Under the pieces are notes generated by a model. The model worked only from the letters and a program-made list of their open reading frames with translations. It was not told the DNA's origin and searched no databases. The translations under genes were made by a program, and so were the position numbers. Positions 47,099-47,321 of a stretch of DNA of 64,000 nt are shown piece after piece (the first letter of the stretch is position 1; each line of letters starts with the position of its first letter). This stretch comes from Escherichia coli (lineage in GTDB: Bacteria > Pseudomonadota > Gammaproteobacteria > Enterobacterales > Enterobacteriaceae), in the NCBI RefSeq assembly GCF_003334255.1, contig NZ_QOWU01000002.1. The stretch is one strand, 5' to 3'.

Positions 47099-47102
47099 TA
47101 AT

Positions 47103-47312
47103 AGCACGACTGCCGGATGCGGCGTGAACGCCTTATCCGGCCTACACTTCGCCCGTAAGCCGTAGGCCTGATAAGACGCGCAAAGCGTCGCATCAGGCAT
47201 GGCGCACGACTGCCGGATGCGGCGTGAACGCCTTATCCGGTCTACACTTCGCCCATAAACCGTAGGCCTGATAAGACGCGCATAGCGTCGCATCAGGCAT
47301 CTGCGCACGACT
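47103..47312. repeat. BIME: two tandem ~100-bp units, each with a REP pair
   Basis: The unit GCACGACTGCCGGATGCGGCGTGAACGCCTTATCCGG(C/T)CTACACTTCGCCC...GTAGGCCTGATAAGACGCGCA(A/T)AGCGTCGCATCAGGCAT occurs twice in direct tandem. Confidence 0.8.
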
Positions 47313-47321
47313 TATCTATGT

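Follow-up and report, generated by a model that had tools for sequence, protein, structure and literature searches.

The frmB (fghA) and yaiL genes of Escherichia coli converge on an intergenic region at positions 47099-47321 of the window, i.e., of the whole 64,000-nucleotide stretch of DNA that was analysed. The frmB gene ends with a TGA stop codon at 47096-47098 on the + strand, while yaiL ends with a TAA stop codon at 47322-47324 on the - strand, 23 nt from the nearest of the hairpins described below. An earlier note on this DNA, made from the sequence, had named both genes and their convergent arrangement, and these identities are confirmed by the 1201 bp around the array, which are 100% identical to E. 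coli K-12 MG1655. The note had also proposed that a BIME unit of roughly 100 bp is tandemly duplicated between the two genes. Tandem Repeats Finder and a comparison of the repeats both bear this out: the former places the array at 47104-47312, with a period of 100, 2.1 copies, 94% matches and a score of 376, and a repeat search aligns 47104-47200 with 47204-47300, 100 nt apart, at 96% identity over 97 nt. The two 100-nt units have 7 differences, 4 of them internal and 3 in the linker at their junction. The repeat occupies all of the gap between frmB and yaiL.

In the K-12 chromosome, this region corresponds to positions 377312-377534 of NC_000913.3, in reverse orientation. Neither the PGAP records nor the NC_000913.3 record contains a repeat feature at the site. 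The window is not MG1655 itself: over the 8 kb at 44000-52000 it is 99.86% identical to MG1655 (NC_000913.3), whereas natural strains such as M505, M719 and G6/7 match it at 100%, and K-12 identity within these 8 kb is limited to the frmB/yaiL array and its immediate flanks. We dismissed as a gene an open reading frame of 103 aa at 46997-47308 on the - strand, which is translated REP sequence overlapping the 3' end of frmB.

In each of the two units, a Y REP on the + strand is joined by a 16-nt linker to an inverted Z2 REP on the - strand, and a linker of about 13 nt with GCGCACGAC follows, in agreement with the proposal of two nearly identical units that each hold a REP pair in opposite orientation. 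Reading from frmB, the array begins with a truncated boundary linker on the + strand, GCACGAC (47104-47110), which retains 7 of the 9 nt of GCGCACGAC. The Y REP of unit 1 (47112-47145, + strand) matches the Y consensus with 0 mismatches and is followed by a head-to-head linker of the S type, ACTTCGCCCGTAAGCC (47146-47161, + strand; 16 nt, without an IHF consensus). The Z2 REP of unit 1 (47162-47198, - strand; 0 mismatches) is inverted relative to Y; its GTAG, in the letters of the + strand, is at 47162-47165 and its hairpin at 47166-47198. A tail-to-tail linker, ATGGCGCACGACT (47199-47211, + strand), forms the junction of the two units and includes GCGCACGAC at 47202-47210. Unit 2 then repeats the same order with a Y REP (47212-47245, + strand; 1 mismatch) whose hairpin at 47212-47241 folds with -19.6 kcal/mol, an S-type linker, ACTTCGCCCATAAACC (47246-47261, + strand; 16 nt), and a Z2 REP (47262-47298, - strand; 0 mismatches; hairpin 47266-47298). 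Finally, the right boundary linker, ATCTGCGCACGACT (47299-47312, + strand), begins a third, partial period and contains GCGCACGAC at 47303-47311. The chance expectation for matches to the Y and Z2 REP consensus sequences was 0.00 in shuffles of the window. The recurrence of GCGCACGAC at the unit boundaries, as previously claimed, holds for the middle and right boundaries, but the left boundary has only the shortened GCACGAC.

All four REPs fold as interrupted hairpins on both strands, with energies of -17 to -23 kcal/mol and z-scores of -3.8 to -5.7, and each hairpin has an internal mismatch. The GTAG tetranucleotide lies at the foot of each palindrome, appearing as CTAC at 47142-47145 and 47242-47245 and as GTAG at 47162-47165 and 47262-47265, and these tetranucleotides oppose each other across the 16-nt linker. 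When the region was folded as a whole, the RNA exhibited long-range Y-Y pairing, which we read as an artefact of self-complementary repeats; the folds of individual hairpins were used instead. We found no promoter-like site within 47099-47321, and no intrinsic terminator (a GC-rich hairpin with a U-tract) on either strand of the same interval. The distal hairpin is followed by ATCTGCGCACGACTTATC.

The array is a canonical BIME-2 made of two tandem Y-S-Z2-l units, and thus belongs to a kind of element that has already been described. The definition of BIME-2 includes tandem copies whose number can differ between strains at one locus, while BIME-1 combines Y with Z1 across a long L linker that carries an IHF site, in a single copy (Ton-Hoang 2012, PMC3333891). 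At the frmB/yaiL locus, Y and Z2 alternate, GTAG is found at the feet, the S linker is short, and the tandem copies have a recurring boundary motif and vary in number. Unlike in BIME-1, Y is paired with Z2 over a linker of 16 nt, without an IHF consensus, and the unit is tandemly repeated. The suggestion that such units might serve as IHF sites does not apply here, because IHF binding belongs to the L linker of BIME-1 and not to BIME-2, and the IHF consensus, WATCAANNNNTTR, is absent from both strands of 47099-47321. We take the junction linker to be of the l type, solely because the sequence matches the naRNA4 (Y-l-Z2) model over its full length.

REP elements occur elsewhere in the window as well. 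A second BIME-2 array lies 2 kb away in the mhpE/mhpT intergenic region (49268-49509), with a period of 101 and 2.4 copies. It has the same GCGCACGAC junction linker as the frmB/yaiL array and a different S linker, and it yields two Rfam naRNA4 matches above threshold. In MG1655 (NC_000913.3) this second array has 4.4 copies (positions 1923-2366 of the retrieved locus), and the window differs there by about 200 bp. A single Y/Z2 REP pair at 16069-16157 resembles a BIME-2 of one unit, with a longer linker of about 18 nt.

The number of units at the frmB/yaiL locus had been expected to vary between strains, and a comparison of genomes confirms this. The locus was matched in all 5,426 complete RefSeq E. 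coli genomes and is contiguous in 5,260. A systematic sample, taken in even steps down the match ranking of the complete genomes, provided 57 intact loci, of which 23 have two units (span 721-724 bp), 34 have one unit (621-623 bp) and none is longer. An earlier sample contained 17 two-unit and 21 one-unit loci, and no three-unit locus among these 38; samples of this size (57 and 38) leave room for rare three-unit alleles. A synthetic three-unit probe, compared with all complete E. coli genomes, had no single-piece full-length match among the matches listed, the ranking of which is confounded in that one-unit loci appear as three summed pieces. Unit counts were confirmed by direct reading of ten loci. 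In this way, two units were read in K-12 and in the B-strain derivative NEBExpress, and one unit in O157:H7 and ST131 strains; an O111:H8 strain has one unit as judged by its span.

We tested a deletion model, without gaps, that derives one-unit alleles from two-unit alleles through the removal of exactly one period. The allele of KLY, whose flanks are identical to those of K-12, equals the window allele minus 100 nt with 0 mismatches in 169 nt, and the crossover is confined to an interval 5-42 nt after the frmB stop codon. Removing 100 nt from the ET300 allele likewise gives the O157:H7 allele, with 0 mismatches in 170 nt, and here the interval is within TGATAAGACGCGCA, 71-85 nt after the frmB stop codon. 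Because the two intervals do not overlap, the events were independent, with no fixed breakpoint. Homologous recombination or replication slippage between the 100-bp repeats would fit such losses of a unit, while a site-specific cut would not.

The single unit of O157:H7 is chimeric: its 5' part is that of unit 1, and its 3' part that of unit 2. Moreover, markers specific to unit 1 and to unit 2 are common to the K-12, B and ET300 alleles. Together, the chimeric unit and the shared markers speak for two units as the ancestral state of these lineages, from which one-unit alleles arise, repeatedly, through collapse. The ST131 unit resembles a fusion of unit 1 of FEA3 with the tail of its unit 2, which is suggestive of a third crossover interval, but a 2-nt deletion and a different left flank are also required. 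The one-period-deletion model does not fit ST131 or 23AR0303, where 20-30 mismatches result from indels and a different linker. Across the 16 units that were read, variation is mostly found in the hairpin loops and in both linkers, and the stems are almost invariant. A separate observation concerns 23AR0303, whose one-unit allele has an internal S linker, GGATGGCGCGGGAATTT, equal to that of the mhpE/mhpT array (in the intergenic region after position 449 of the locus). This linker suggests a conversion or an exchange between BIME arrays that are 2 kb apart.

In order to find outgroups, we searched contigs from one genome per species using a degenerate pattern for the C-terminus of YaiL, which led to 120 loci. 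Among these, a convergent frmB downstream of yaiL is found only in E. albertii and in a divergent Escherichia (SCPM-O-B-8794, named "E. coli"). The site in E. albertii contains a single REP pair, Y-like and Z1-like, and the site in SCPM-O-B-8794 contains a single pair of Y and Z2 with a short linker. In other genera, 118 loci all lack frmB downstream of yaiL, and nothing in that position matches the unit. Given the single pairs in E. albertii and the divergent Escherichia, a REP pair at this site is old within Escherichia. The duplication is confined to E. coli proper in the loci compared.

The Z2 REPs contain the target of a mobile element. The IS110-family element IS621, which uses a bridge-RNA recombinase, has the natural target ATCAGGCCTAC (Durrant et al. 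2024, PMC11208160), and this sequence is present exactly in both Z2 REPs, at 47162-47172 and 47262-47272 on the - strand. Another exact ATCAGGCCTAC at window positions 63213-63223 is presumably inside another REP. The systematic sample included 2 interrupted loci, each of which contains an identical 1279-bp IS621. The insertion point, CCGTAG^GCCTGATAAG, is located at the head (GTAG) of a Z2 REP and corresponds to the CT core of ATCAGGCCTAC when read on the opposite strand. In PEC122 the insertion is in the Z2 of unit 1, equivalent to window position 47165/47166 (1224-2502 of the retrieved locus), and in strain 779 it is in the Z2 of unit 2, equivalent to 47265/47266 (2919-4197 of the retrieved locus). 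In strain 779, the fghA gene next to the interrupted BIME is annotated as a pseudogene with an internal stop (1916-2749 of the retrieved locus). According to a junction probe, IS621 adjoins fghA in 98 of the 5,426 complete genomes (1.8%), including strain HS. Among the 60 matches listed of these 98, the element is in the first Z2 after fghA in 45 cases and in the second in 15.

Published Term-seq data for MG1655 contain a 3' end at position 377325 on the - strand, with an average of 100,650 reads, in LB at OD600 2.0 only of three growth conditions (Adams et al. 2021, PMC7815308, supplementary file 1). This position corresponds to window position 47308 on the frmB strand, and the published 61-mer matches the window exactly. 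It is the only curated end inside the intergenic region; because Term-seq reads in repeats may drop out as multi-mappers, the missing ends at the three inner hairpins are weak evidence. The distal hairpin, i.e., the fourth hairpin, formed by the second Z2, has its last paired base 10 nt before this end, and there is no U-tract. RNA from the frm strand thus extends through the four hairpins, and it accumulates as a species that ends at the base of the fourth. On the yaiL strand, ends are found at 377694 and 377696, with about 1,500 reads (Adams 2021, PMC7815308); these are window positions 46939 and 46937, which are within antisense frmB and beyond the array. The same study reports a Rho-dependent region at 378012 on the + strand (Rho score 5.8, p = 1.7e-10; PMC7815308), at approximately window position 46621, antisense to frmB. 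Since both the yaiL-strand ends and the Rho region lie beyond the array, we conclude that yaiL transcripts read through it. This read-through gives antisense RNA across the 3' end of frmB.

In our view, it is likely that this BIME-2 acts as an array of hairpins that protects the 3' end of frmRAB and as a leaky barrier to transcription, with a recurrent loss of units and a second unit that is near neutral. An end about 10 nt past a stable hairpin and without a U-tract is the expected signature of trimming by a 3'-to-5' exonuclease. Transcription from frmB would traverse the array and end further downstream, after which 3'-to-5' exonucleases would trim the frm RNA back to the distal Z2 hairpin. 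That hairpin would protect the frmRAB mRNA, such that the four GC-rich hairpins may be seen as a local 3'-UTR element. Trimming of this 3'-to-5' kind has been proposed for Rho-dependent transcripts, whose ends are formed by protective stem-loops; REPs account for 24% of these stem-loops (Dar and Sorek 2018, PMC6061677). REP325, a six-unit BIME-2, is a partially Rho-dependent attenuator as well as an mRNA stabiliser (Harris et al. 2026, bioRxiv 10.64898/2026.03.23.713779). For the frm strand, Adams 2021 reports no Rho region downstream of the array, and yaiL is absent from supplementary file 2 of that study. Because no such region is reported, termination with subsequent trimming is indistinguishable from attenuation at the BIME.

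It is important to emphasize that we infer the stabilisation of frm mRNA solely from the position of its 3' end. More generally, a REP is present in 207 of 704 convergent intergenic regions, and such gene pairs are more highly expressed; terminal REPs are not generally linked to longer mRNA half-lives (Harris 2026, bioRxiv 10.64898/2026.03.23.713779). As to frmB and yaiL, the supplements of this preprint contain one unrelated differential-expression row for yaiL and nothing else. In the yaiL direction, we propose that the array is a partial barrier at most, because transcripts enter antisense frmB and are terminated there by Rho. The role of transcript stabiliser or terminator suggested in the earlier note therefore fits in part: it is consistent with the Term-seq end at 47308, but the array is a leaky terminator for yaiL transcripts. 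The array is also a target at the level of DNA, for insertion of IS621, which has occurred here, and possibly for gyrase cleavage, as occurs at a subset of other BIME-2 elements.

Every one-unit allele retains the same distal Z2 hairpin and right boundary, and therefore the 3' end of the frm mRNA should stay unchanged by the second unit. We accordingly expect that the second unit is probably close to neutral. The opposite proposal would be that unit number is kept by selection, with the second Z2-l-Y junction tuning the expression of frmRAB and yaiL, local supercoiling or the capture of IS621. We give this proposal very little credence. If it were correct, the relevant additions made by the junction would be a second Y REP of the type preferred by gyrase, a naRNA4-like segment of two hairpins and a second IS621 site.

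Several other functions could be envisaged for the array. It could insulate the convergent frmRAB and yaiL units from each other as an efficient bidirectional terminator, given that its palindromic hairpins fold on both strands, that the frm-strand 3' end is at the edge of the array, and that about 40% of REPs between convergent genes are within previously identified bidirectional terminators (Harris 2026, bioRxiv 10.64898/2026.03.23.713779). However, none of the hairpins is followed by a U-tract on either strand, the yaiL-strand ends and the Rho-dependent region are found beyond the array inside antisense frmB, and the frm-strand end comes after all four hairpins rather than at the first. An efficient terminator is thus unlikely. 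Another function would involve translation, in that the first Y REP could lower FrmB synthesis by stalling the terminating ribosome, leading to mRNA cleavage and trans-translation. In the mechanism of Liang, Rudd and Deutscher (2015), REPs that are fewer than 16 nt from a stop codon reportedly down-regulate translation. From the frmB TGA codon to the first paired base of a hairpin there are 13 unpaired nt (47099-47111) in the window and K-12 allele, and the 23 nt at yaiL exceed the limit. A 15-nt rule for the distance between REP and stop codon is quoted second-hand in another article (PMC12306157). However, the spacing at frmB is borderline and is not conserved, as it is 15 nt (TAATAGTGCACGACT) in most other alleles and 16 nt in ST131 and strain-104, and the mechanism leaves the duplication unexplained. 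We find such an effect on FrmB distinctly improbable. Binding and cleavage by gyrase are a classical property of BIME-2 elements, and the array might mainly function in this manner, as a strong, transcription-independent gyrase site to which the second unit would contribute a second Y REP. The Y/Z2/S architecture is the relevant one, and the array lies between convergent genes, where positive supercoils accumulate. In addition, some BIME-2 elements are enriched in gyrase cleavage sites, most of which lie in Y REPs, and the sites increase upon a block of transcription; yet it is only a subset of the elements that is cleaved (Sutormin 2019, PMC6379681). Moreover, frmB, yaiL and mhpT are absent from the Topo-Seq supplementary files of PMC6379681 that we examined, a set that is possibly incomplete, about 60% of sampled genomes have a single unit, and REPs are missing at the site in other genera. 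A mainly gyrase-related function is possible, but we consider it doubtful.

The remaining alternative is that the junction between the units encodes a small RNA. On the - strand, positions 47165-47242 match the Rfam naRNA4 model (RF02564) with 79.6 bits, compared to a gathering score of 59.5. This match covers the Z2 of unit 1, the junction linker and the Y of unit 2, and exists only because two units are present: the score is 79-81 bits in all four two-unit alleles tested, each of them above the gathering score, and at most 41 bits in all four one-unit alleles. As naRNA4 consists of Y and Z2 motifs joined by an l linker (Qian 2015, PMC4550694), the junction might encode a nucleoid-associated RNA of this type (Y-l-Z2, about 78 nt) that condenses DNA with HU. 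However, the match is generic to any BIME-2 junction, as exemplified by the two additional matches in the mhpE/mhpT array, and is lost in one-unit alleles. The intergenic region also lacks a promoter-like site, and the Adams 2021 tables (PMC7815308) have no Term-seq 3' end at the junction. In recent experiments, REP325/naRNA4 led to no measurable nucleoid compaction and no stable HU-DNA-RNA complex, in a preprint whose authors include the senior author of the original naRNA4 paper (Harris 2026, bioRxiv 10.64898/2026.03.23.713779). The RF02564 match is a by-product of the inter-unit junction, and a nucleoid-associated RNA encoded here is extremely unlikely.

Our preferred reading, a 3'-end-protecting BIME-2 that is a leaky barrier for yaiL transcripts, concerns a textbook element in a part of the E. 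coli chromosome that is among the best studied, and it matters little beyond bookkeeping. Nonetheless, minor but concrete facts about the locus are that about 40% of sampled complete genomes have two units, that at least two independent exact collapses occurred, that an frm 3' end is mapped and that IS621 is present in the array in 1.8% of complete genomes. Such details are possibly useful for work on the function of REPs or on bridge recombinases. In particular, natural strains with one unit, with two units or with IS621 in either Z2 represent a ready-made allelic series with which to relate REP copy number to the expression of convergent genes.

Among known systems, the natural IS621 targets in REPs have the same exact target as the array, and insertion is a consequence of the REP sequence, not of array function. 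BIME-1 elements and the array both have an inverse REP pair in an intergenic region. REP325/naRNA4 has the same two-hairpin Y-l-Z2 unit, as evidenced by the full-length model match, and, as with the array, it is part of a 3' UTR, with transcription coming from the gene upstream. However, the array has one complete junction, and only in its two-unit alleles, and it lies between convergent genes, whereas REP325 is between tandem genes. Moreover, the nucleoid function of REP325/naRNA4 is now disputed, and the array would at most be a candidate source of a discrete small RNA. In terms of size, the frmB/yaiL array has 2 units, compared with 6 units in REP325 and 2.4 to 4.4 in the neighbouring mhpE/mhpT array. 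With BIME-2 elements in general, the array shares alternating Y and Z2 REPs, a short head-to-head linker that is free of IHF sites, a recurring tail-to-tail linker and tandem units whose number varies between strains. There is no essential difference between them, and the array is merely a short BIME-2, with two units.
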